DNA of 64,000 bases from Bdellovibrio sp. ZAP7 (GCA_945900755.1 CAMDKS010000001.1:63491-127490); one strand, 5' to 3'. Positions 9,951-55,857 are shown, counted from the first letter of the stretch. Translations and numbers: made by a program. The notes: generated from the sequence alone by a model not told the origin.

Positions 9951-10751
9951 TTAACTGTCTTTGATAGAAAAACGCAACCTTTGAACGCCACTACACGCCC
10001 CAGAATCTTCATTTATTTCAAAGAGCATTCCATAGAACCATAGATCATTTTTTGCAGGTTCAAAGTTTTTTCGTTCGCCAGTACGCATTCTTTGTACCGC
10101 TGACGCCGTATCCATTCCAATGACGCTATCGTAGGGGCCGGTCATGCCTAAATCTGTGACAAATCCAGTATGCTTTTTAAAGATCCGCTCGTCGATCGTT
10201 GGTACGTGACTATGGGTTCCATAGACGGCGGAAACACGCCCCGCTAAATATTGTCCGAGTCCCTGTTTTTCACTGGTGGCCTCGGCGTGTATGTCGAGGA
10301 TTCGCACCTTGCAATACGACGGCACTAACCCAAGCATTTTATCGGCCATATCATAAGGCGAAGAATTATCGCCCTTCATAAAGACTTTGCCAATCACGTT
10401 CATGACTGCAATCCGAACCCCGCCCTTTGTTTCCAACAGGCGCAGTCCCCTTGACGGCTCGTCTACATTATACATGTTTGCTGGTAAAACGATGCGAGGA
10501 TGATCTCTAAATTCATAGATGTCTTTTTTGTCCATCCAATGATTGCCGGTGGTGATGCAATCGATACCGAACGTTGGGCTGATCAACTCTTCAAAGAGCT
10601 TTTTGGTAATCCCAAAGCCGCCGGCAACATTTTCGCCGTTCATTATTACGAAGTCAGGTGAGAATTCCGCACGAGCGCGCTCAAGGCCTTTAATAAGGGC
10701 GAGTCGACCAGGTCGACCCATAACATCCCCAACCGCAAGAACTCTAATCAC
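9951..10751 (-). CDS. ymdB: YmdB-type metallophosphoesterase (2',3'-cyclic-nucleotide phosphodiesterase family)
   Basis: 266-aa ORF. IRVLAVGDVMGRPGR..VIMNGENVAGGFGIT..TTGNHWMDKK closely parallels B. subtilis YmdB. Its start overlaps the rny stop by 4 nt. Confidence 0.85.
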   Translation of the reverse strand: MIRVLAVGDVMGRPGRLALIKGLERARAEFSPDFVIMNGENVAGGFGITKKLFEELISPTFGIDCITTGNHWMDKKDIYEFRDHPRIVLPANMYNVDEPSRGLRLLETKGGVRIAVMNVIGKVFMKGDNSSPYDMADKMLGLVPSYCKVRILDIHAEATSEKQGLGQYLAGRVSAVYGTHSHVPTIDERIFKKHTGFVTDLGMTGPYDSVIGMDTASAVQRMRTGERKNFEPAKNDLWFYGMLFEINEDSGACSGVQRLRFSIKDS

Positions 10752-12307
10752 TTTGCATAATCCACAAATTTGGATTCGCGAATAACAGTCACTCTTACTT
10801 GGCCAGGAAAGGTAAGCGCCTGCCGCATTTTATGGGCAATACTGCTCGAAAGATTTGAGACCTCTTGATCGGATACTTCGGCAGGGTTAACGATGGCATG
10901 GACTTCGCGTCCTGCTTGGATCACAAAGGCCTCATTCACGCCGGGGAAATCCTTGGCAACTTTTTCCATTTCTGCAAGGCGTGTAACATAAGTTTCTAGA
11001 ATTTCTTTTCGAGCTCCGGGACGATTCGACGACAGGCTATTTGCAGCGTATAGGACCACTGCATAAGGCGTGACATTATTTAAATCCTCACGGTGATGGT
11101 GTCGAATGGCCTCAACCAGTTCTGCGGACTCCTGGTAACGAAGGCAGAAATCCGCACCAATATCGGCGTGATGACCCTCCGTTTCCTGATCGATCGCCTT
11201 GCCAATATCGTGCAGTAGGCCGCATCGTTTTGCTTTTTTTACATTTAAGCCGATTTCTCCGGCAATAATTCCACAGATGTGTGCCGTCTCGATGCTGTGT
11301 TGTAGCACGCTTTGCTGACCTGCGGTGCGGTACTTCAACTTTCCCAGTGCCATGACCAACTCGGGATGAAGATCGACGATGCCAGTGTCGAAACTAGCCT
11401 GCTCACCTTGTTCACGAATCACTAAATCAAATTCACTGATGACGCGTTTGACCGTTTCGTCAATGCGAGCAGGATGAATCCGTCCGTCGCCGATAAGGCG
11501 CTCGATCGTTAGTTTTGCAATTTCACGCCGCACAGGATTGAAACAAGAAATAATCACGGCCTCAGGCGTATCATCGATAATTAAATCGACGCCCGTTGCC
11601 TGTTCAATCGCTCGAATATTTCGGCCTTCACGCCCGATAATTCGTCCCTTCAGATCTTCACTTGGCAGGGTGACCACCGTAATCGTTGAGTCACTCACAT
11701 ACTCGCCACTAATGCGCTGAACCGCCAAGCTTACGACCGCTTTGGCACGCTTGTCAGCCTCTGCTTTGGCATCGGCCTCAATACGAGTTATCATGGCTTG
11801 AGCATCAGCTCTGGCCTGCGTTTCGAGAGTCTTAAGTAATTCTCGCTTGGCTTCCGCATGCGACATATTGGCGATGTTTTCGAGAGTTTTTCTAGTACTT
11901 AACAGAGAGGCTTCACACTCGACGCTAAGTTTTTGATAGTTGGCTTCTTCCGTTTGAGCCTTTTTGCTAAGTCCCTCTAGCTCTTGTTCCCGCTTGTCTA
12001 ATATCGCAAGCTTCTTTTCGATGGTTTCCTCGCGAGCCTTTAATTTTTGTTCAAGCTTTGTGACTTCGCCGCGGCGCAGACGAGCCTCATCTTCAAACGT
12101 CTGACGAGACTTGCGACTTTCTTCTTTGGCGTCTCGAAGTGAACCCTTAATCATATCATCCGCTTCACGACGAGCATCATCAAGGACACGCTTGGATTCG
12201 AGTCGCGCCTTTTCAAATGCGTGGGTTAGCTGCTTCTTGTGAAAAAATACACCTATGACCAGCACGCCAATTAGAATGCCAATAAAGGCTATCAGTAACA
12301 TCGTCAA
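10748..12307 (-). CDS. rny: ribonuclease Y
   Basis: It has an N-terminal TM helix, a long coiled coil, a KH segment (GRIIGREGRNIRAIE) and an HD domain (LLHDIGKA). The listed ORF starts at 12373. I prefer TTG at 12307 (GGAGG 8 nt upstream) or ATG at 12301. Confidence 0.9.
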   Translation of the reverse strand: MTMLLIAFIGILIGVLVIGVFFHKKQLTHAFEKARLESKRVLDDARREADDMIKGSLRDAKEESRKSRQTFEDEARLRRGEVTKLEQKLKAREETIEKKLAILDKREQELEGLSKKAQTEEANYQKLSVECEASLLSTRKTLENIANMSHAEAKRELLKTLETQARADAQAMITRIEADAKAEADKRAKAVVSLAVQRISGEYVSDSTITVVTLPSEDLKGRIIGREGRNIRAIEQATGVDLIIDDTPEAVIISCFNPVRREIAKLTIERLIGDGRIHPARIDETVKRVISEFDLVIREQGEQASFDTGIVDLHPELVMALGKLKYRTAGQQSVLQHSIETAHICGIIAGEIGLNVKKAKRCGLLHDIGKAIDQETEGHHADIGADFCLRYQESAELVEAIRHHHREDLNNVTPYAVVLYAANSLSSNRPGARKEILETYVTRLAEMEKVAKDFPGVNEAFVIQAGREVHAIVNPAEVSDQEVSNLSSSIAHKMRQALTFPGQVRVTVIRESKFVDYAK

Positions 12308-12492
12308 AGCAATATCCTCCAGCTCACAACAAGGCGAGCGTTCGTTCCGTGAAATAAATATAAACCAGCGCATCCAAATACTTCGGTCAAGTCTGCTATC
12401 ATACTCACCAAAGTAGGGGTAGGGATACGCTAAAATTCATTCTCCAGCAAAAGCCTGGGGCACGTGGCGTAGATTGGCTCAGCGTGCCAAAG

Positions 12493-39268: not shown

Positions 39269-40459
39269 ATGGAAAATTCCCAAGTAGCGCCGCAAAAAGG
39301 AATTGTCCCCAGGACAATTAACCTACAAGAATTACTAAGCAAAAAGTCACATTTTTTATTTGGCCCTAGATCCACTGGCAAATCAACAGCCATCGGTCAA
39401 CAGTTAGGCAAAAAGGCCGTAATCGTTAATTTGCTTCGCTCGGCGGTGCAATCAACGCTTCTTAAAAACCCAGAAGAACTCGAGGGCATCATTGATGCGG
39501 CCATCGATTCCAGCACATCAATGGTAGTGATAGACGAAATACAAAAAGTGCCTGCATTGCTTGATGAGGTTCATCGGCTGATCGAAGAACGCAACTTTAG
39601 ATTCTTACTCTCAGGGAGTAGCGCGCGAAAATTGAAGGCTTCAGGTGTCAATCTCTTAGGTGGACGCGCATGGATTTCAAATATGTTCCCTTTTACAACT
39701 GAAGAACTTAAAGAAAATTTTAAACTTGAGCACTTTCTGCGATATGGCGGCCTACCTCATGTCTACTTCAGCTCGTTTCCTCAAGATGAGCTGGAAGCAT
39801 ATATGACAACTTATCTTAACGAAGAAATTAAGATGGAAGGCTTGGTCCGAAAAATTCCTGCGTTTCTAGAATTTCTCCGGCTTGCAGCGATGACTAACAC
39901 TCAAATCCTTAACTTCTCGACCATAGCATCCGACACTGGTGTTAGTGCGACAACGATCAAAGAATACTATGGCATCTTAGAAGATACTTTGATCGGTAGG
40001 TTGGTGCAGCCCTGGGCGAAGTCCACCAAACGAAAAGCAGTGGCCACTGCGAAATTTTATTTTTTTGACACGGGAGTGGCTCACACGTTAGCGGAAACTA
40101 AAACCTTAGACCGCAACTCGGATCTCTACGGACAAAGTTTTGAGCAGTGGATCTTTATGGAGCTTTCCGCCTATCTATCTTATCGTAATCGTAAAGAGAA
40201 ACTTCGGTTCTGGAGGTCTCAGGATCGCCACGAAGTTGACTTTACCATTGGGGACGAGGTTGCCATCGAAGTCAAATCAACTAAGAAAATCAATAGAGAC
40301 GATTTCTTGGGAATTAACGCCTTACGAGAAGAGGGTTTCTTTAAGGCTTTTTTTATCGTCAGTAGCGATCCGGTCGATATCGTAAGAGATGGCGTCCATT
40401 GTTTAAATTGGAAAACATTTTTGCAGCGTCTATGGGCCGACCAAGTGCTCAGAATATAG
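39269..40459 (+). CDS. AAA ATPase with DUF4143-type C-terminal domain
   Basis: 396-aa ORF with Walker A (GPRSTGKST) and Walker B (MVVIDEIQ). The C-terminal half resembles the DUF4143 ATPase family (recall). Confidence 0.7.
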   Translation: MENSQVAPQKGIVPRTINLQELLSKKSHFLFGPRSTGKSTAIGQQLGKKAVIVNLLRSAVQSTLLKNPEELEGIIDAAIDSSTSMVVIDEIQKVPALLDEVHRLIEERNFRFLLSGSSARKLKASGVNLLGGRAWISNMFPFTTEELKENFKLEHFLRYGGLPHVYFSSFPQDELEAYMTTYLNEEIKMEGLVRKIPAFLEFLRLAAMTNTQILNFSTIASDTGVSATTIKEYYGILEDTLIGRLVQPWAKSTKRKAVATAKFYFFDTGVAHTLAETKTLDRNSDLYGQSFEQWIFMELSAYLSYRNRKEKLRFWRSQDRHEVDFTIGDEVAIEVKSTKKINRDDFLGINALREEGFFKAFFIVSSDPVDIVRDGVHCLNWKTFLQRLWADQVLRI

Positions 40460-40714: not shown

Positions 40715-42160
40715 TTACAGGCCGAGTTTTTGTCGCAGCATATTTACATCGGCTCGAAAAATATTTCCCGGCGACTTTGCATTTTGTTGTTCGTAGTAAA
40801 GCAAGAGACTTCTGAGTAAGTCACGTCCCTCGGGCGTTTTAGCCGATTGCTTTGGCGTTTTGTCATTCAAGGCTGGCACAGGAATATCAAACCAAGAGTC
40901 CCAATGGTCTTGACTTCTTTTTGCAATCATCGCCCTAGCTTCCGGGGGGAGCTGGTCTAAAGGTATGGCCGCTCCTCTTTCTGGCAATCGTTTTCCATTT
41001 TTCAGGGCTTCAATTTGTGGTTCAATGGGCTCAATCATAGTCGTCTTATATGTTACTTGACCGCGAAGGCGAGTCTCGACTTCCTTACGGATTCGTTTGG
41101 CCCGTTCATGTGAATTTACTTCGATCGTTAGTTGATTCTTATAAATTTTAATGTTCCCAAGAAGTATAGGTCCCGCCAAACGCTTTCTAGCGGTAGGCTT
41201 TCCCCCAAGCCAAGAGATTTTCGCTTCCACGATCTTTCCGTGCTCTGACCTCGCATGGTGCGTTAACTCATCTTCGGTGGCTCCCTCCTGTAGGACCTTT
41301 AATTTATGAAAAGCAAAGTCTGGGTCTTCAATTTGATACATAATTTTTTGCGGCATCAAGGGATCACCATCGGTATTATGCAACTTGATGTTCGGATTAA
41401 ATAATTGCTTGACGATATCTAGATACGTTTCGCGGATAGACTCATCAAACTCCAGAATATCCTCAGAGGTTAACGGCTTTTTCCCAACGGCGCTTTCGAT
41501 AAATTTTCTAAGTTTCAAGATTTCATTTTTGTATATAGGCGGTATTGGATAAGGTGCCGTTGCGATGTTCGAGAATCGATTTGCAAAATACATCGTAGCA
41601 CAAAACATGATTTGTCCGACTTGCAGAGCCAGGGACGCCGTTCGCTCGTTGACTTCAAACTCGCCGTCGGTCAGTAAATCCCGCAAACGCATTCCCGTTC
41701 CTGGGTGGACAGCAACCACCTCACAGAAGCTAAATGGGCACCGATTGGCTGCATTTAAAATCATTTTTTCGTCAGCACTAAGCTGCCGGTCGTTGGCTTC
41801 GAGAAAAGACTCAGCCACGGTGGTGTCAATAGGCGCGCCCAGTTTTACCGTTTCTTCCGGTTCCGTCTCTGTCCAATTAAATAGGAGCCAAGGCATGAAG
41901 GCTTGATTCATCGGTGCTTCGGGGTCAAACCCAACGTCTGTCTCATAATTATTGAAATCGTCCCATGCTTCGTGGAACGCTTCTGGTCCAAAAATCTCGG
42001 CGGCATGGCGCATCAGTCTGGGAATCAATTGAGCCTCGACATGACGCAGGCGCTGGTAGTTAAAATCAACAGCCTTACTGAGATCCTGAGTTGCCAGACA
42101 ACATTTTTTGTACTTCTTGCCACTTCCACAAGTGCATAGATCGTTTCGCCCTACTGTCAT
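40715..42160 (-). CDS. SEC-C-motif metal-binding protein, otherwise uncharacterised
   Basis: CTCGSGKKYKKCC lies at the extreme N-terminus. ATG 42160 is preceded by AAGGAG; the listed ORF starts at 42187. The rest (~460 aa) has no motif I recognise. Confidence 0.6.
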   Translation of the reverse strand: MTVGRNDLCTCGSGKKYKKCCLATQDLSKAVDFNYQRLRHVEAQLIPRLMRHAAEIFGPEAFHEAWDDFNNYETDVGFDPEAPMNQAFMPWLLFNWTETEPEETVKLGAPIDTTVAESFLEANDRQLSADEKMILNAANRCPFSFCEVVAVHPGTGMRLRDLLTDGEFEVNERTASLALQVGQIMFCATMYFANRFSNIATAPYPIPPIYKNEILKLRKFIESAVGKKPLTSEDILEFDESIRETYLDIVKQLFNPNIKLHNTDGDPLMPQKIMYQIEDPDFAFHKLKVLQEGATEDELTHHARSEHGKIVEAKISWLGGKPTARKRLAGPILLGNIKIYKNQLTIEVNSHERAKRIRKEVETRLRGQVTYKTTMIEPIEPQIEALKNGKRLPERGAAIPLDQLPPEARAMIAKRSQDHWDSWFDIPVPALNDKTPKQSAKTPEGRDLLRSLLLYYEQQNAKSPGNIFRADVNMLRQKLGL

Positions 42161-42503
42161 AGACTCACAACTCCTTCGGAGTAACATAATTGAAGTTAGG
42201 AAAATGCATTATTTATTTTCACCAAAAACACCAATGTGTTCGCCAGCCCTGTGGAGAACAGCACCAGCGGACTCTCTCACAGGTGGGCGGACATTTTCAA
42301 CTTCTATTGCAGGTTCATATGAAATTAGGTGTCTTTTTGGTGGTACTTTTGGGTTTAAACTCGCATTTTGGAGCTAGCGTCGTGGAGTTGAATAATAAGA
42401 AAATTAATGGCCGAAGGGATCATAACATCGCCGCTGTGACATTGATTAAGTCTAAAGGCGCTTTCGAAGTTTTAACTGTAATGACAGATTTTGAGGTGCA
42501 AAA

Positions 42504-42818
42504 ATGAAAGTCTATCATGATTCTGAAATTGACTATCTTTCAATAGACTTCACGGATGAGGTTGAGTCGAAGTCTGTATTTAAAGATGGAATTATTATTC
42601 GGTATAACAAAAAAGTCCATGTCATTGGGGTCGATATCACAGACTCAATGAAGCTTTTTGCAAGTTCCGACATGATGACTTTGCAAGAGGCTTGTGCCTT
42701 TTTGGGAATCTCAGAATCTACAATGAGACGAAAGATAAGACATGGAAAGATTAAGTTTGTTAAGCAAGGCAAGGATTATCGCTTTAAAAAATCTGCTATT
42801 ATTAACCTTGCAGCGTAG
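42504..42818 (+). CDS. DUF2283-like domain fused to excisionase-type HTH
   Basis: 104-aa ORF. The N-half MKVYHDSEIDYLSIDF...VIGVDITDS fits DUF2283 (recall). The C-half LQEACAFLGISESTMRRKIRHGKI is an HTH. Confidence 0.6.
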   Translation: MKVYHDSEIDYLSIDFTDEVESKSVFKDGIIIRYNKKVHVIGVDITDSMKLFASSDMMTLQEACAFLGISESTMRRKIRHGKIKFVKQGKDYRFKKSAIINLAA

Positions 42819-42843: not shown

Positions 42844-42872
42844 TTGACACAAGTCAAATAATGTGCAATATT
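42844..42872 (+). promoter_or_regulatory. sigma70-like promoter candidate with palindrome over the -35
   Basis: TTGACA at 42844-42849, a 17-nt spacer, then AATATT at 42867-42872. TTGACACAAGTCAA (42844-42857) has 5-bp inverted arms. It lies 33 nt upstream of the 42905 ATG. Confidence 0.45.
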
Positions 42873-42904
42873 CACATAGCCGTTATATAGGAACATTCTG
42901 ACCC

Positions 42905-43195
42905 ATGCAGACCAGGCAATTAACCAAAACAATACGTTCCCTCATAGCTGCCGGTAAAGTTCGTGTCCTTAAACATGCCTGCGAACGAATGGCACTACGA
43001 GGTTACACGTTGCCCGAGGTAGAGCAAATCCTTAGGAGCGGATTCCACGAGCAAAACCACGATGAGTTTGATGGCAAATTTGACACTTGGCGTCACGCTA
43101 TACGGGGGTCAACGATCGACGGACGGCAGACCCGCGTGATAGTAGCAATTGTCGACGATCTTTTGGTAATCTCCGTCGTCGGGCCATTAAAATAA
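42905..43195 (+). CDS. DUF4258-like small protein (putative toxin)
   Basis: 96-aa ORF. VLKHACERMALRGYTLPEVEQIL and the size fit DUF4258 (recall), a family usually paired with DUF2283. Confidence 0.55.
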   Translation: MQTRQLTKTIRSLIAAGKVRVLKHACERMALRGYTLPEVEQILRSGFHEQNHDEFDGKFDTWRHAIRGSTIDGRQTRVIVAIVDDLLVISVVGPLK

Positions 43196-43208
43196 GGAAT
43201 AAAACTTC

Positions 43209-43652
43209 ATGAAAACAAAAAAATCAAAAAATCTTGTCTACGGCGGTCTAGGCTTCCCCATTATTTTTAAAGAGGTCGAGGTAAAAGAAGTGCTAGGAGA
43301 ATTCGTTCCCAACATGAACCACCGCAAACTTCAAGATGATGTGTTCCGAGCTCTTCTCAATGCTCGATTTAAGCTATCAGGATCCCATCTGGCCTTTATC
43401 CGGCATTATATGGGGCTGAAACAGGACGAGTTTGCCCAACGCCTTGGGCTGAGCGGCCATAGTATGATCTCAAAATGGGAAAAAAGGCGCACCATCTCCA
43501 CAGGTATGTCAAATGCCACTGAAGCTGGGGTCCGAATACTTATGCACCAATTTCTCAATGATCCGAAAATTGCCACCAAAGAAGTGACTGATATACTTGC
43601 CGGCGAACTTACTGAGCCGAAGGGGCCTGTTGCTGTGAGCGTGGCTGCATAA
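43209..43652 (+). CDS. MqsA/YgiT-like HTH antitoxin-type protein lacking the zinc-finger cysteines
   Basis: 147-aa ORF with an XRE-type HTH (LSGSHLAFIRHYMGLKQDEFAQRLGLSGHSMISKWEK). The N-terminal layout parallels YgiT-type proteins but contains no Cys. Confidence 0.55.
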   Translation: MKTKKSKNLVYGGLGFPIIFKEVEVKEVLGEFVPNMNHRKLQDDVFRALLNARFKLSGSHLAFIRHYMGLKQDEFAQRLGLSGHSMISKWEKRRTISTGMSNATEAGVRILMHQFLNDPKIATKEVTDILAGELTEPKGPVAVSVAA

Positions 43653-43707: not shown

Positions 43708-44424
43708 TTAGTGATATTGGGGTTCCTGCTCGGCCAAATCCGTTTTGGCTAGCCACCATACTGGGTCTGGACGTTGGGGGTTAGGTGAAATTTCTGTCTC
43801 TTCACATTGGTCAAAGCATTCCAGTCGGAATTGAAACCCTTCATGAGAGGTGAGGGTTTCGCCAAATTCTTCCCAGGTATATTCAACGCCATCGACAATC
43901 ACAACCGGCGTGCCATCAGCCCGCTGGCAAATCCGACCATTAACAGCTGCGCCTTTGATATAGAGGCGGTCATGATGGAGTTCCGCCCCGAAATCAGACG
44001 AACGCATATAGCGAACGGCGAGGCCCGCCTCAATTTTCTTGTAGAGTTTGGCATAAACTTCCTGGACCGGGGTATCGGGGTGCTCAAGGACAGAAAATTG
44101 ATAACCGCCGGGTGAACCATCAACCAACTCGAACGACTTGATTCCAAGCCCAGTGCTTAGGCGAACATCAAAATAAAAGATATGGGCCTTACCGACTGAG
44201 TCATGCAACATAACGGGGGGGAAATTGACAGTCTCAGGCCTGGGAAACCCGGATTGCATGGCATGAAATTGATTGTAACACTCTGAGCAAAGTTTCTGGC
44301 ATGCGCCTCCATCCTTACTGGTGAGATGAGTAAAGCCGAAGGCGAGATTTTCCTTGCGGCATGTATCGCAAATCTCTGTTGGAATCTGTGATTTTGAATT
44401 TTGCCCAACTTTCTTGTTTTCCAT
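43708..44424 (-). CDS. hypothetical protein with N-terminal zinc ribbon
   Basis: 238-aa ORF with CDTC...CSEC near the N-terminus. AAGGAAG RBS. It lies 28 nt downstream of the 44453-44986 gene. Confidence 0.5.
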   Translation of the reverse strand: MENKKVGQNSKSQIPTEICDTCRKENLAFGFTHLTSKDGGACQKLCSECYNQFHAMQSGFPRPETVNFPPVMLHDSVGKAHIFYFDVRLSTGLGIKSFELVDGSPGGYQFSVLEHPDTPVQEVYAKLYKKIEAGLAVRYMRSSDFGAELHHDRLYIKGAAVNGRICQRADGTPVVIVDGVEYTWEEFGETLTSHEGFQFRLECFDQCEETEISPNPQRPDPVWWLAKTDLAEQEPQYH

Positions 44425-44452
44425 TCAATGTCTTCCTTTCAAATTAGAGAGT

Positions 44453-44986
44453 TCATTCAGCCGAAATGTGGCCGTTTTCTGCTGGCAGATACGGAATCAA
44501 ACCTTTTTTAAACGCAACTTCTTGAACATCCCTTGTGGCGTGCCGTACATCCACAATGAAGCCGTTTATCGAAAGCATCCATGCCATTGGATTTTTGTCG
44601 AGCCTACTTGGGAGTGTCCATTCCGGGGCAAACTGTTGAAGTTTGAGCATTCGCCTTATCGCCATGCATTTTCCCTGGCCCGTGCTTTCCCCGACCCCAA
44701 GTGCCTTATCAATTGCGGTAAGTTTCATATAAGGTTTCGTGCTGGAATCATCAAGAAAATTAACCCATCCAACCGTGCGAATGATTCCACATGCCCAAGT
44801 GTTTGGTTTTCCACTTGCGAATGGCGACGGGCGCTTACGGGCGAGTTTGGCGAATAATTGCTTGCACAGATTGGTATACTCTTCATTGAGATGCTCTCGG
44901 CAAAACATCTCGACGAGGCTTGAAATATCTGAAAAATCGCCCTTTGGGCTTTTGGCGGACATATTCGCCGCAATTTTCTTGGCCAT
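44453..44986 (-). CDS. hypothetical protein
   Basis: 177-aa ORF with an AAAGGG RBS. It is co-oriented and near-contiguous with 43708-44424. No motif I can name with confidence. Confidence 0.5.
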   Translation of the reverse strand: MAKKIAANMSAKSPKGDFSDISSLVEMFCREHLNEEYTNLCKQLFAKLARKRPSPFASGKPNTWACGIIRTVGWVNFLDDSSTKPYMKLTAIDKALGVGESTGQGKCMAIRRMLKLQQFAPEWTLPSRLDKNPMAWMLSINGFIVDVRHATRDVQEVAFKKGLIPYLPAENGHISAE

Positions 44987-51149: not shown

Positions 51150-52173
51150 TTCAAAAATTATCAATGGCCCCCTATTTTATAAAGTATAACCCATCAGAGT
51201 TAGAAGAAATCATCGATGAAGTGTCGCCTACTCCTGCTTACATTGTCATTGATGAAGTGCAGAAAATTCCAATCTGCTCGACGAGGTTCATCGGCTCATT
51301 GAGGAACGAGGACTAATTTTTCTATTGACTGTGAGTAGCGCTCGACGCTTAAAAATGGAGGGCGTAAATTTGCTTGCCGGTCGTGCGTGGATAGCAAACC
51401 TATTCCCCTTAACTTACCGTGAAATAGGTTTAAAAAACTTTAATCTAAATCGCTACTTGCAATTTGGAGGTTTGCCAGCAGTATGGCAGAGTGAGTTTCC
51501 AGAGGAACAGTTAGATGCATATGTCCAAGTCTATTTGACGGAAGAGGTTAAGGCAGAGTCTGCCGTGAGAAAAATGCCAGCATTTGTCGAATTTTTGCGG
51601 TCCAGTGCACTATCAAATGGTCAAGTTTTAAATTACGCCAAATTAGCAAGTGACGCCGGGGTTTCGATACCAACAATTGCAAGCTATTATAAAATTCTTG
51701 AAGACACTTTATTGGGGTTCGAGGTAAGCAGTTGGAGGAAATCAACATCACGAAAAGCGATCACAAAATCCAAATTCTATTTTTTTGATCCGGGCGTTGT
51801 CAATACACTAACAGGAACTGAAAGTATTGATCGCAATTCAAATATTTATGGAAATCTATTTGAGCAGTTCATTGCAATGGAGTTGCGAGCATACATAAGC
51901 TACCGCAGACTTAAGAATCAGCTACAATTTTGGCGAACAGAAGATCAAGTAGAGGTCGATTTTATAATAGGTGGAAAACTCGCCATAGAAGTAAAAACGA
52001 CAAAAAAAATTAGTGCTGATGACCTAAAGGGTCTAAAAACGCTTGCTAAAGAGGGTCTCGTTAAGAAATACGTTGTTGTCAGCCACGATCCAATCGACCG
52101 TAAAACCGGTGAGTTCTACCTATACCATTGGAAGACATTTTTAAAAAAACTTTGGGACGATGAACTTCTATAA
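51150..52173 (+). pseudogene. AAA/DUF4143 ATPase paralog, N-terminally truncated and frameshifted
   Basis: 51325-52173 parallels the C-terminal two-thirds of the 39269 ATPase (SSARRLKMEGVNLLAGRAWIANLFP vs SSARKLKASGVNLLGGRAWISNMFP). Upstream, IVIDEVQKIP continues in another frame, implying 1 nt missing near 51270. No Walker A region is present. Confidence 0.75.
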
Positions 52174-52279: not shown

Positions 52280-52303
52280 GTCAGCAGCCGCCTAAAGACT
52301 TCA
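52280..52303 (+). repeat. junction motif copy A (GTCAGCAGCCGCCTAAAGACTTCA)
   Basis: Matches copy B at 21 of 24 positions. It lies between the ATPase pseudogene and the abiEii stop. Confidence 0.7.
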
Positions 52304-54079: not shown

Positions 54080-54110
54080 GTTTTACCCCCTTAACCACTT
54101 CGAGTGGGGT

Positions 54111-54148
54111 GTTAGCAGCCGCCTAATGACTACAGTATTTGACCTACA
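54111..54148 (+). repeat. junction motif copy B (38 nt)
   Basis: GTTAGCAGCCGCCTAATGACTACAGTATTTGACCTACA. It matches reverse-complemented copy D at 35 of 38 positions. Confidence 0.8.
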
Positions 54149-54380: not shown

Positions 54381-54409
54381 TTGACATGGTCATCTAGAGA
54401 CCATATTGT
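54381..54409 (+). promoter_or_regulatory. sigma70-like promoter with palindromic operator in the spacer (phd-vapC)
   Basis: TTGACA at 54381-54386 and TATTGT at 54404-54409. The 17-nt spacer TGGTCATCTAGAGACCA is a near-perfect palindrome. GGGAG RBS precedes the ATG at 54430. Confidence 0.6.
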
Positions 54410-54429
54410 ACATTCAGGGAGCTTAAGAT

Positions 54430-54690
54430 ATGAAAAAAGTGAATATCTCAAAAATTAAAGCTGAATTAAGCAAATATCTACGCTTTGTTAAAGCCGGCGA
54501 AGACGTATTGATTATGGACCGTGATCAGCCGGTTGCCAAAATTGTTGGTATTAAGCCAGAGTCGGCATTGCACATCAAAGAGCCGTCGAGAGATCTGAAA
54601 TCAGTCCTCATGCAAGCCGATAAACGCCCTTTTACTGAAAAAATGGATATTTTAGACGTCCTTCTCCTAGATCGTGAGGACCGAGTTTAG
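54430..54690 (+). CDS. Phd/YefM-type antitoxin
   Basis: 86-aa ORF. ISKIKAELSKYLRFVKAGEDVLIMDRDQPVAKIV fits the Phd/YefM N-terminal fold pattern. Its stop overlaps the vapC GTG by 1 nt. Confidence 0.7.
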   Translation: MKKVNISKIKAELSKYLRFVKAGEDVLIMDRDQPVAKIVGIKPESALHIKEPSRDLKSVLMQADKRPFTEKMDILDVLLLDREDRV

Positions 54691-55121
54691 TGGTCACGGT
54701 AAGTCCAACCTCCTATTTTGATTCGTCGGTTTTGCTTCGCTACGTGATTGGCCACGAACAGTCGATACAAAATCTTACGCCTTATAGCAAAGGCGCTGTG
54801 ACCAGTGCAATCACGGCAATTGAGTGTTTGCGAGTCCTCGATCGTTGGCGTATCACTAAAGAAATTAACGATGAAAGACTGATTTCTGCGAGAAGTCTAT
54901 GTTTGCAAATTCTGAGCGGACTCAGAATTATCGCAGTGGACGACCACGTTGTGTCCATGGCTAGTCAAACATTTCCAATCGCGATGAAGTCGCTCGATGC
55001 TATCCATCTCGCTTCGGCTCTTCACTTTCAGAATCAAAGTGGAGTAAAAGTTTTGCTCTTAACCCATGACATTAAATTGCAAATGGCCGCAACCGCGTTT
55101 GACATGGACGTCTTCAGTTAG
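54690..55121 (+). CDS. vapC: PIN-domain toxin (VapC-like)
   Basis: 143-aa ORF with GTG start. It has an N-terminal acidic YFDSSVLL and SLDAIHLASAL, as in PIN domains. Confidence 0.75.
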   Translation: MVTVSPTSYFDSSVLLRYVIGHEQSIQNLTPYSKGAVTSAITAIECLRVLDRWRITKEINDERLISARSLCLQILSGLRIIAVDDHVVSMASQTFPIAMKSLDAIHLASALHFQNQSGVKVLLLTHDIKLQMAATAFDMDVFS

Positions 55122-55132
55122 CAGATGTTAAT

Positions 55133-55462
55133 TTGAACCGACTCCAGAAAATTGCTTTCGAAGGGCTCATTGTAAAACCGGCAAGGTTAAGTGGGTCCGA
55201 AGTCGCATTTATCAGATCTTATATGGGCTACACTCAAGCTCAATTTGCGCAACTTCTCAATTTGGCCAATCATTCTATTGTATCGATATGGGAAAAAAAG
55301 GACCTTAAAGGTACTGGAATGGATTTCAATACCGAGATCTTTCTCAGGTTAAATATGGCACGAACAATTCGTAAGGCTCTGGTAAATCAGGTTTTGGAGA
55401 ACTATGGATCCTCAGCCGATATTGGAGCTAAACCAGAACCGATACGGCTCTCTGTTGCTTGA
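55133..55462 (+). CDS. MqsA/YgiT-like HTH protein, paralog of 43209-43652
   Basis: 109-aa ORF with TTG start. The HTH core LSGSEVAFIRSYMGYTQAQFAQLLNLANHSIVSIWEK shares 23 of 38 residues with the 43209 protein (hand alignment). Confidence 0.55.
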   Translation: MNRLQKIAFEGLIVKPARLSGSEVAFIRSYMGYTQAQFAQLLNLANHSIVSIWEKKDLKGTGMDFNTEIFLRLNMARTIRKALVNQVLENYGSSADIGAKPEPIRLSVA

Positions 55463-55469
55463 AAATGGC

Positions 55470-55490
55470 GTTAGCTGCCGCCTGTTAGCA
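55470..55490 (+). repeat. junction motif copy C (GTTAGCTGCCGCCTGTTAGCA)
   Basis: It starts 8 nt after the HTH gene stop and carries GTTAGC twice. Its first 15 nt are complementary to copy D at 14 of 15 positions. Confidence 0.7.
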
Positions 55491-55545
55491 CCACGCACTC
55501 CATGGAACAATCGAAACACCATCGGGACATTTTGAAAAATTGCAT

Positions 55546-55767
55546 CTACCGGTCCATTAACTTCGCCACAAGTGTCGTCTTGCCGGACTGCCGCATCCCG
55601 ACGACTCCCACGACCGGCCAGAAACGTAGATATTTATTGAGTTTAGTTTGGGCCAATCTTTTTCGGAGATGAGGCACATTCTTCCAATCAGAGTTATAAC
55701 TTATTCTCAGATTTTTGGGAATTATCGTCTTTATGAACTTCAACGATCCCAATCCCCTGTAGGTCAA
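55546..55767 (-). pseudogene. N-terminal fragment of a P-loop ATPase (AAA/DUF4143-type)
   Basis: 73-aa ORF with TTG start that stops right after Walker A (VVGVVGMRQSGKTTLVAKL). No downstream ATPase sequence follows. Confidence 0.6.
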
Positions 55768-55795
55768 ATACTGTAGTTTTCAGGCGGCTGCTAAC
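55758..55795 (-). repeat. junction motif copy D (38 nt, inverted)
   Basis: Its reverse complement is GTTAGCAGCCGCCTGAAAACTACAGTATTTGACCTACA. It includes the TTG start and first codons of the ATPase fragment. Confidence 0.8.
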
Positions 55796-55857
55796 AAGGG
55801 TCGTAGATTAGTTTAGCTCAGCTGGAAGTCTTGCAGGGTCTAGGCCCCCCGAGAGCT

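Follow-up and report, generated by a model that had tools for sequence, protein, structure and literature searches.

An apparent third gene behind a Phd-VapC pair in Bdellovibrio sp. ZAP7 is very probably the truncated antitoxin gene of a decayed DUF4258 module

Introduction

Does the Phd-VapC toxin-antitoxin (TA) pair in a 64,000-nt stretch of Bdellovibrio sp. ZAP7 DNA (GCA_945900755.1, CAMDKS010000001.1:63491-127490; the whole stretch is hereinafter designated the window, and positions are counted from its first nucleotide) have a third component? A 109-amino-acid (aa) helix-turn-helix (HTH) open reading frame (ORF) lies directly behind vapC, and a related HTH gene lies behind a toxin gene of another fold, DUF4258, 12 kb away. 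A preliminary description of positions 54381-55462 read this arrangement as a portable third component, either a second antitoxin or a regulator in the manner of omega or PaaR, and named a degenerate toxin-first TA remnant as its last alternative. Here we compare sister alleles of the locus and relatives of the HTH gene, and conclude that the last alternative is very probably the right one: the ORF appears to derive from a second type II TA module of toxin-first order, composed of a DUF4258 toxin and a zinc-less MqsA-like antitoxin, and to represent the 3' two-thirds of its antitoxin gene; it would thus be a pseudogene fragment and not a third component.

Results

An antitoxin-first pair followed by a 5'-truncated HTH ORF

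The phd gene (54430-54690, + strand; phd/yefM family, 86 aa, intact) scores 36.5 bits against PF02604 (cut-off 29.8) and 24.0 bits against TIGR01552 (cut-off 20.8). The intact vapC gene (54690-55121, +; 143 aa, GTG start) scores 35.7 bits against the PIN-domain family PF01850 (cut-off 23.6), and inspection against the known PIN motif finds the acidic residues D11, E45, D103 and D127 all present. The two genes form an antitoxin-first, translationally coupled bicistron, the vapC start sharing 1 nt with the phd stop, and phd has a GGGAG Shine-Dalgarno (SD) sequence (-7.4 kcal/mol). A σ70-like promoter site on the + strand (TTGACA, 17 nt, TATTGT; 54381-54409; 10 of 12 consensus positions) surrounds ATGGTC-N7-GACCAT (54386-54404), a palindrome with perfect 6-nt arms and a candidate operator for Phd/VapC; both are consensus matches only. 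By family, PIN domain and gene order the genes are predicted to be a Phd/YefM-VapC type II TA pair, which would run as an ordinary two-gene operon from the promoter at 54381. The overlapping pair with its own promoter and palindrome, as well as the placement of the HTH gene, had been described correctly.

The HTH ORF (55133-55462, +) has a TTG start 11 nt past the vapC stop, and homology to its family is detectable already from 55122. Against its 147-aa paralogue (43209-43652) BLASTP aligns 34 of 73 residues as identical (47%, E 7e-20), and the count of 23 of 38 identical core residues that had been obtained by hand is right. Both proteins end in SVA(A), as had also been noticed. In the BLASTP alignment residue 3 of the 109-aa ORF pairs with residue 40 of the paralogue, showing that the short ORF is an N-terminally truncated version. 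It has no Pfam match and a weak NCBIfam match to the HTH part of the MqsA model TIGR03830 (21.5 bits; cut-off 61.8).

Full-length relatives define what is missing. The closest homologues of the ORF in a database of 5.8 billion clusters are 98% (P0001), 81% and 73% identical and each 146 aa long, and homologues of the 147-aa paralogue measure 141-148 aa, plus one 119-aa match covering 81% of the query. In a joint alignment the N-terminal 37 residues of the family carry a near-invariant motif, Y-x-GLGFP...VP-x-x-N. These residues are absent from the 109-aa ORF, which begins at the first helix of the AlphaFold2 (AF2) model. Searching 1.84 billion representatives with a profile returns 859 clusters at E <= 1e-3, of which 380 reach E <= 1e-10. 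Among the 150 best cluster representatives, the match starts no later than profile position 15 in 144, and in a handful it starts at positions 27-46, like that of the window ORF. Because so few do, HTH-only forms appear to be sporadic and not a stable class. The ORF thus has the character of a 5'-truncated remnant of a zinc-less MqsA-like antitoxin gene that keeps the HTH domain, including the invariant recognition-helix residues H84, S85, S88, W90 and E91, and the C-terminal tail. It is without the N-terminal beta domain, an SD sequence, a promoter/operator and a cognate DUF4258 toxin gene.

Sister alleles display the deletion and its preceding stages

The origin of the short form is visible in contigs from near-identical strains. 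A look-up of the exact VapC protein finds it encoded on six contigs, five of them in addition to the window, and together with two further contigs (L001 and L004) these resolve into five alleles, A-E, when junction sequences are compared in eight assemblies. In allele A (L001), positions 1-99 correspond to window 55023-55121, the vapC 3' end through its stop, and positions 704-1106 to window 55122-55524, both at about 98-99% identity. The 604 bp between them, absent from the window, comprise a spacer of 235 nt, a DUF4258 gene, and the GGAG SD sequence and codons 1-33 of the HTH gene. L001 encodes an intact, 98%-identical 146-aa HTH protein, and its DUF4258 gene is divided between two reading frames (one with residues 1-39, the other with 55-104), about 58 nt having been lost out of frame. 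In the window, a deletion scar on the + strand (55120-55123) joins the vapC TAG, which ends at 55121, via CA to L001 position 704, where codon 34 of the gene for the 146-aa HTH protein lies.

The remaining alleles differ in what follows the same vapC. Allele B (L041 and L042) joins the vapC stop plus CATC to L001 position 490, so that the final ~100 nt of the dead toxin gene remain, with an intact 146-aa gene 116 nt past vapC. Allele C, with the vapC stop plus CA joined to L001 position 704, comprises the window, L004 (99.45% identical) and L038 (100% over 4,092 bp). Alleles D (L039) and E (L040) have the B-type left junction, and their HTH genes are broken by unrelated DNA after codon 36 and codon 17, respectively; they may be genuine rearrangements or chimeric contigs. 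Three assemblies, representing at least two independent samples, share the allele C junction, which is therefore not an assembly artefact. When JGI metagenome contigs were scanned for the 3' end of vapC as an exact pattern, 0 matches came up. Because strains with an identical VapC carry 146-aa, 109-aa or shorter versions of it, the "third gene" is not conserved with Phd-VapC, and its placement after vapC, which had been taken as a sign of portability, is the product of the deletion visible in these alleles.

Over window 55122-55704, L042 and the window are 100% identical. For the remnant the ratio of nonsynonymous to synonymous substitutions (dN/dS) is uninformative: alleles differ by 0-4 substitutions, and the intact L042 copy has the same sequence as the truncated ones, indicating that the deletion is recent.

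The HTH family is linked to DUF4258 and in none of 28 loci to PIN toxins

To whom the family belongs can be read from the DNA upstream of the HTH gene in 28 loci, gathered by exact-protein look-up, a scan of one genome per species and a metagenome scan. An intact DUF4258-type ORF of 96-118 aa precedes the HTH gene in 21 loci, ending 1-15 nt before its start or overlapping it by at most 4 nt, and the upstream ORFs sampled all score above the Pfam DUF4258 cut-off. Six more loci have a recognisable yet disrupted DUF4258 gene, owing to a frameshift deletion (L001), premature stops (L016 and L018), replacement of the 5' half (L027), reduction to the last 15 codons (L034) or the lack of any ORF of at least 60 codons (L035). 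In the last locus (L024) there is no toxin and the HTH gene itself is a truncated fragment. A PIN gene stands upstream in none of the 28 loci, and in the window no similarity to the DUF4258 toxin is found in the 600 nt upstream of the HTH ORF (55133). Tabulating the upstream genes therefore bears out the suspected tie to toxin genes and confines it to DUF4258, and lends no support to a component that travels between unrelated toxin folds.

Since 27 of the 28 loci have a DUF4258 gene or its wreck upstream, and none a PIN gene, the HTH family is predicted to act as cognate antitoxin in toxin-first DUF4258 modules. The family occurs in uncultured proteobacterial metagenome-assembled genomes (MAGs), in MAGs labelled Parachlamydiaceae/Chlamydiae and in a single MAG labelled Verrucomicrobia. 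In other host lineages the DUF4258 toxin has decayed independently while the antitoxin was kept (L016, L018, L027, L034 and L035), and L024 has a truncated HTH fragment; such toxin-first decay recurs across the family.

Upstream of the DUF4258 genes the -10 region is covered by a 17-bp palindrome whose sequence differs from one subfamily to the next. The candidate operators are ATGTG-N7-CACAT in the clade of the window paralogue, ATGTCA-N5-TGACAT in the chlamydial clade and ATGTTAA-N3-TTAACAT in the remnant's own clade (L002; degenerate in L001); the last has no copy anywhere in the window.

An intact DUF4258 module in the same window

The 147-aa paralogue belongs to a complete module of this kind. 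A promoter match (TTGACA, 17 nt, AATATT; 42844-42872, +) carries over its -10 element the palindrome ATGTG-N7-CACAT (42861-42877), a clade-conserved candidate operator that is the same in six related loci. It is followed by an intact DUF4258 toxin gene (42905-43195, +; 96 aa, RelE/ParE superfamily; PF14076 28.7 bits, cut-off 25) and the intact, full-length MqsA-like antitoxin gene (43209-43652, +). The HTH paralogue is hence the second of two genes in an operon that has its own promoter, and not the third gene of a 42.5-43.7 kb module as in the preliminary description.

The AF2 model of the 147-aa protein (mean pLDDT 89.2, pTM 0.85) folds at its N terminus into a beta unit of three strands (residues 4-34), has helices from residue 38 on, among them an XRE-type HTH, and has a short C-terminal strand. 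A sequence search of the PDB gives nothing meaningful. The top structural match (Foldseek) is E. coli MqsA, 3gn5, with a probability of 0.98 over 130 columns; the match is weak by E value (5e-3) and TM score (about 0.32-0.36), which fits two flexibly linked domains.

Just upstream of the operon, an ORF at 42504-42818 encodes DUF2283 fused to an excisionase-type HTH_17 domain. DUF2283 is often paired with DUF4258 elsewhere, which makes its presence here curious. We reject this gene as a member of the DUF4258 module because it is not conserved upstream in relatives and because the operon's own promoter lies in the 86-nt gap between them. The module is further flanked by genes for DUF7686/DUF7713, DUF6398 and SEC-C-motif proteins (43708-44986, -; 40715-42187, -), and these neighbours of unknown function suggest a wider variable island from ~40.7 to 55.8 kb.

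The remnant has poor expression signals

Neither a promoter-like nor a terminator-like site is predicted in the gap from vapC to the HTH ORF, which is therefore presumably transcribed by read-through from the phd promoter. Pairing with the anti-SD sequence amounts to -0.4 kcal/mol before the TTG at 55133 and +0.4 kcal/mol before the ATG at 55223, the sole other in-frame start, as against -4.2 to -7.4 kcal/mol for phd, vapC, the DUF4258 gene, the 147-aa gene and the 146-aa gene of L001. Gene callers place nothing over the ORF on L038, which is 100% identical, and merely a 79-aa product on L004. The 109-aa product is not in a collection of 15 billion proteins, which does hold the Phd, VapC, DUF4258 and 147-aa proteins from the same NCBI contig.

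Rearrangement marks in the surrounding islet

The RNase Y encoded in the window (10748-12373, -) shares 76% identity with proteins of unclassified Proteobacteria/Pseudomonadota MAGs and 59% with an Oligoflexus MAG, which points to an uncultured, probably Oligoflexia-like source. The locus lies in an islet (51.3-55.8 kb) of TA/defence genes and gene fragments that adjoins rml-type sugar genes and contains a DUF4143 C-terminal fragment, abiEii/abiEi, phd-vapC, the HTH remnant and an AAA_14 N-terminal fragment. Endpoints of rearrangement cluster at window 55121-55123 and at L001 positions 100-103, 490, 655 and 703-712. Two deletions begin 0-4 nt past the vapC stop, and further endpoints cluster at CAGATGTT inside the HTH gene. 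Inside the HTH gene, alleles C and D have breakpoints no more than 8 nt apart, at CCAGATGTT, and this cluster may be a hotspot. The region right of the remnant is structurally hypervariable: L041 and L001 have ~140 bp at 55524 that are absent from the window, and at 55704 L042 is longer by ~200 bp.

A 39-nt inverted repeat (92% complementary; 54110-54148 and 55758-55796) brackets the whole segment from phd to the remnant, and its right arm overlaps the start of the ORF for the 73-aa AAA_14 N-terminal fragment (55546-55767, -). The motif GTTAGCWGCCGCCT occurs four times (0.03 expected by chance), at 52280, 54111 and 55470 on the + strand and at 55782 on the - strand, only in the islet and always at gene-module boundaries; it is a candidate REP (repetitive extragenic palindromic)-like element, binding site or recombination site. 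The boundary motif raised the idea of an integron-like cassette array, which we discarded since no integrase or recombinase was found among the neighbouring ORFs scanned (39-59 kb). The clustering of endpoints, together with GTTAGCWGCCGCCT at the boundaries, could hint at a site-preferring cassette-shuffling process in the islet. An intact AAA_14-DUF4143 ATPase gene lies at 39269-40459 (+). In the islet, a DUF4143-only C-terminal piece (51325-52173, +) and the AAA_14 N-terminal piece lie 3.4 kb apart on opposite strands, and may be the two halves of a broken second copy.

Discussion

Comparison with known systems

The window family shares with E. coli MqsR/MqsA (TIGR03830, 3gn5) the toxin-first order, a best but weak structural match for its 147-aa member, weak TIGR03830 matches to the HTH part (26.3 bits for the 147-aa protein, besides that of the 109-aa ORF) and a toxin partner from the same RelE/ParE (BECR) superfamily (PMC11980606). 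It differs in that these scores fall far under the model's cut-off, the partner is DUF4258 and not MqsR, and the CxxC zinc ligands are lacking, with 0 cysteines in the first 40 residues of 16 full-length members. In MqsA the N-terminal domain neutralises the toxin, and the C-terminal HTH domain alone binds the promoter and gives no growth rescue (PMC2791442). The 109-aa ORF retains only the equivalent of MqsA-C and, by this analogy, would be a DNA-binding protein at best and no antitoxin.

DUF4258 proteins have been assigned to the RelE/ParE (BECR-fold) superfamily as toxins "undescribed in the literature", and 17 DUF4258-MqsA fusion proteins have been catalogued (Gerdes 2025, PMC11980606), so that the DUF4258-MqsA pairing is already known bioinformatically. 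The 42905-43652 pair and the full-length relatives are such DUF4258 (PF14076)/MqsA-like modules, whereas the copy behind vapC has lost the toxin and its own 5' third. A Klebsiella survey judged a high percentage of orphan antitoxins to be remnants of once-intact canonical systems (reviewed in PMC7354431), and the order of events here is alike: the toxin is lost first, an orphan antitoxin remains and is then truncated. Unlike in such degraded loci, the stages coexist here as alleles in near-identical environmental strains, and since the deletion runs up to the stop codon of the adjacent vapC, the last stage looks like a three-gene operon. With omega-epsilon-zeta, PaaR-PaaA-ParE and SecB-like toxin-antitoxin-chaperone systems the locus superficially shares three consecutive small genes on one strand, including an HTH gene. 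In those systems, however, the third gene is full length and conserved with the pair, whereas the HTH gene of the window is truncated, varies among strains with identical toxins and comes from another module.

Weighing of the alternatives

A genuine third component, whether a second antitoxin or an omega/PaaR-like regulator portable between toxin folds, is suggested by the 11-nt distance to vapC with no terminator between, and by the presence of the family behind another toxin 12 kb away. This reading is very improbable. Its portability fails on the 27 of 28 loci where the family stands behind DUF4258 or its wreck, the 28th being a truncated remnant without a toxin. Its conservation fails on contigs that encode the identical VapC and show five downstream states: the HTH gene is there as the 146-aa form, as the 109-aa form or interrupted at codon 36 or 17. 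The ORF moreover lacks the conserved N-terminal domain and an SD sequence and is not called by gene finders. That the short form is ancestral, with the 146-aa forms arising by 5' extension or insertion, or that the vapC-HTH junction is a chimeric metagenome assembly, would be in keeping with the fact that all data come from MAG and metagenome assemblies and that allele A is one 1.1-kb contig. We find it barely credible: the identical junction recurs across independent samples, the N-terminal domain is kept down to 39-58% identity in Parachlamydiaceae/Chlamydiae, Verrucomicrobia and proteobacterial MAGs, and an insertion would need to supply a DUF4258 gene plus exactly the first 33 codons in frame.

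A subtler alternative grants the truncation and gives the product a role: translated by coupling to vapC, the HTH-only protein would act at the 42.86-kb ATGTG-N7-CACAT operator or in heterodimers with the 147-aa paralogue, whose autoregulation it might perturb as a dominant-negative or co-repressor. In favour of such a role, the remnant retains an entire HTH domain with its invariant recognition helix, the ORF would by default be co-transcribed with vapC, the operators of the three subfamilies have the outer ATGT-N9-ACAT in common, and MqsA's C-terminal domain alone binds DNA and mediates dimerisation (PMC2791442). Given the shared outer operator and the recognition helix, there is a slight chance of cross-talk with the 42.9-kb operon. 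A residual role is nonetheless unlikely, given the TTG start without an SD sequence, the different inner operator halves (GTTAA/TTAAC versus TG/CA), the absence of the remnant's subfamily operator from the window and the mere 47% identity to the paralogue; the polymorphism of gene presence and length among near-identical strains also argues against selection. The specific proposal that an HTH-only product made by termination-reinitiation acts in trans on the 42.9-kb operon, through operator competition or heterodimer poisoning, is distinctly improbable. If it were true, a decaying TA module would rewire its paralogue's regulation and couple the 42.9-kb operon to the activity of the Phd-VapC promoter.

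Several points weigh against the interpretation of the ORF as an inert remnant of a DUF4258 module. Its frame is open for 109 codons and is cut almost exactly at the domain boundary, so a folded HTH-only product is physically possible, and ribosomes may reinitiate at the TTG so close behind the vapC stop. The deletion is too recent for substitutions to reveal relaxed selection, allele A is known from a single short (1.1-kb) Logan contig, and toxin binding by the N-terminal domain of the DUF4258-linked family is put forward by analogy with MqsA. Taking both sides together, we hold the deletion origin of the vapC-HTH arrangement with high confidence, and consider it likely, at a lower level of confidence, that the remnant is functionally inert.

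A proposed history

The remnant interpretation implies that a second TA module, with a DUF4258 toxin and a zinc-less MqsA-like antitoxin, once lay directly downstream of phd-vapC. Its toxin gene would have been inactivated first, by the internal out-of-frame deletion of ~58 nt. A 387-bp deletion would then have taken most of the dead toxin gene, leaving a 146-aa orphan antitoxin 116 nt behind vapC, and a 214-bp deletion between two CA dinucleotides would have fused the vapC stop to antitoxin codon 34, the state of the window. The simplest path from allele B to allele C turns TTAGCA/TCTG ... GTTCCA/GATG (slashes marking the breakpoints) into TTAGCA/GATG. This final step would have removed the operon promoter/operator, the SD sequence, the ATG and the entire N-terminal beta domain. 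What is left would ride passively on the 3' end of the phd-vapC transcript with poor or nil translation, and any product would be an HTH-only fragment that could bind DNA and could not neutralise a toxin.

Implications

The new element here is an allelic series caught mid-decay, with a misleading final geometry; the kind of system is not new. When neighbouring TA modules decay by deletion, the outcome can resemble a three-gene TA operon, and the locus from phd to the remnant should not be classed as tripartite. The 42.9-kb paralogue provides a clean example of the experimentally uncharacterised DUF4258/zinc-less MqsA-like family with a conserved candidate operator, and the alleles that coexist in near-identical uncultured strains record the order in which such a TA module decays: the toxin is inactivated, the toxin is deleted and the antitoxin is truncated.

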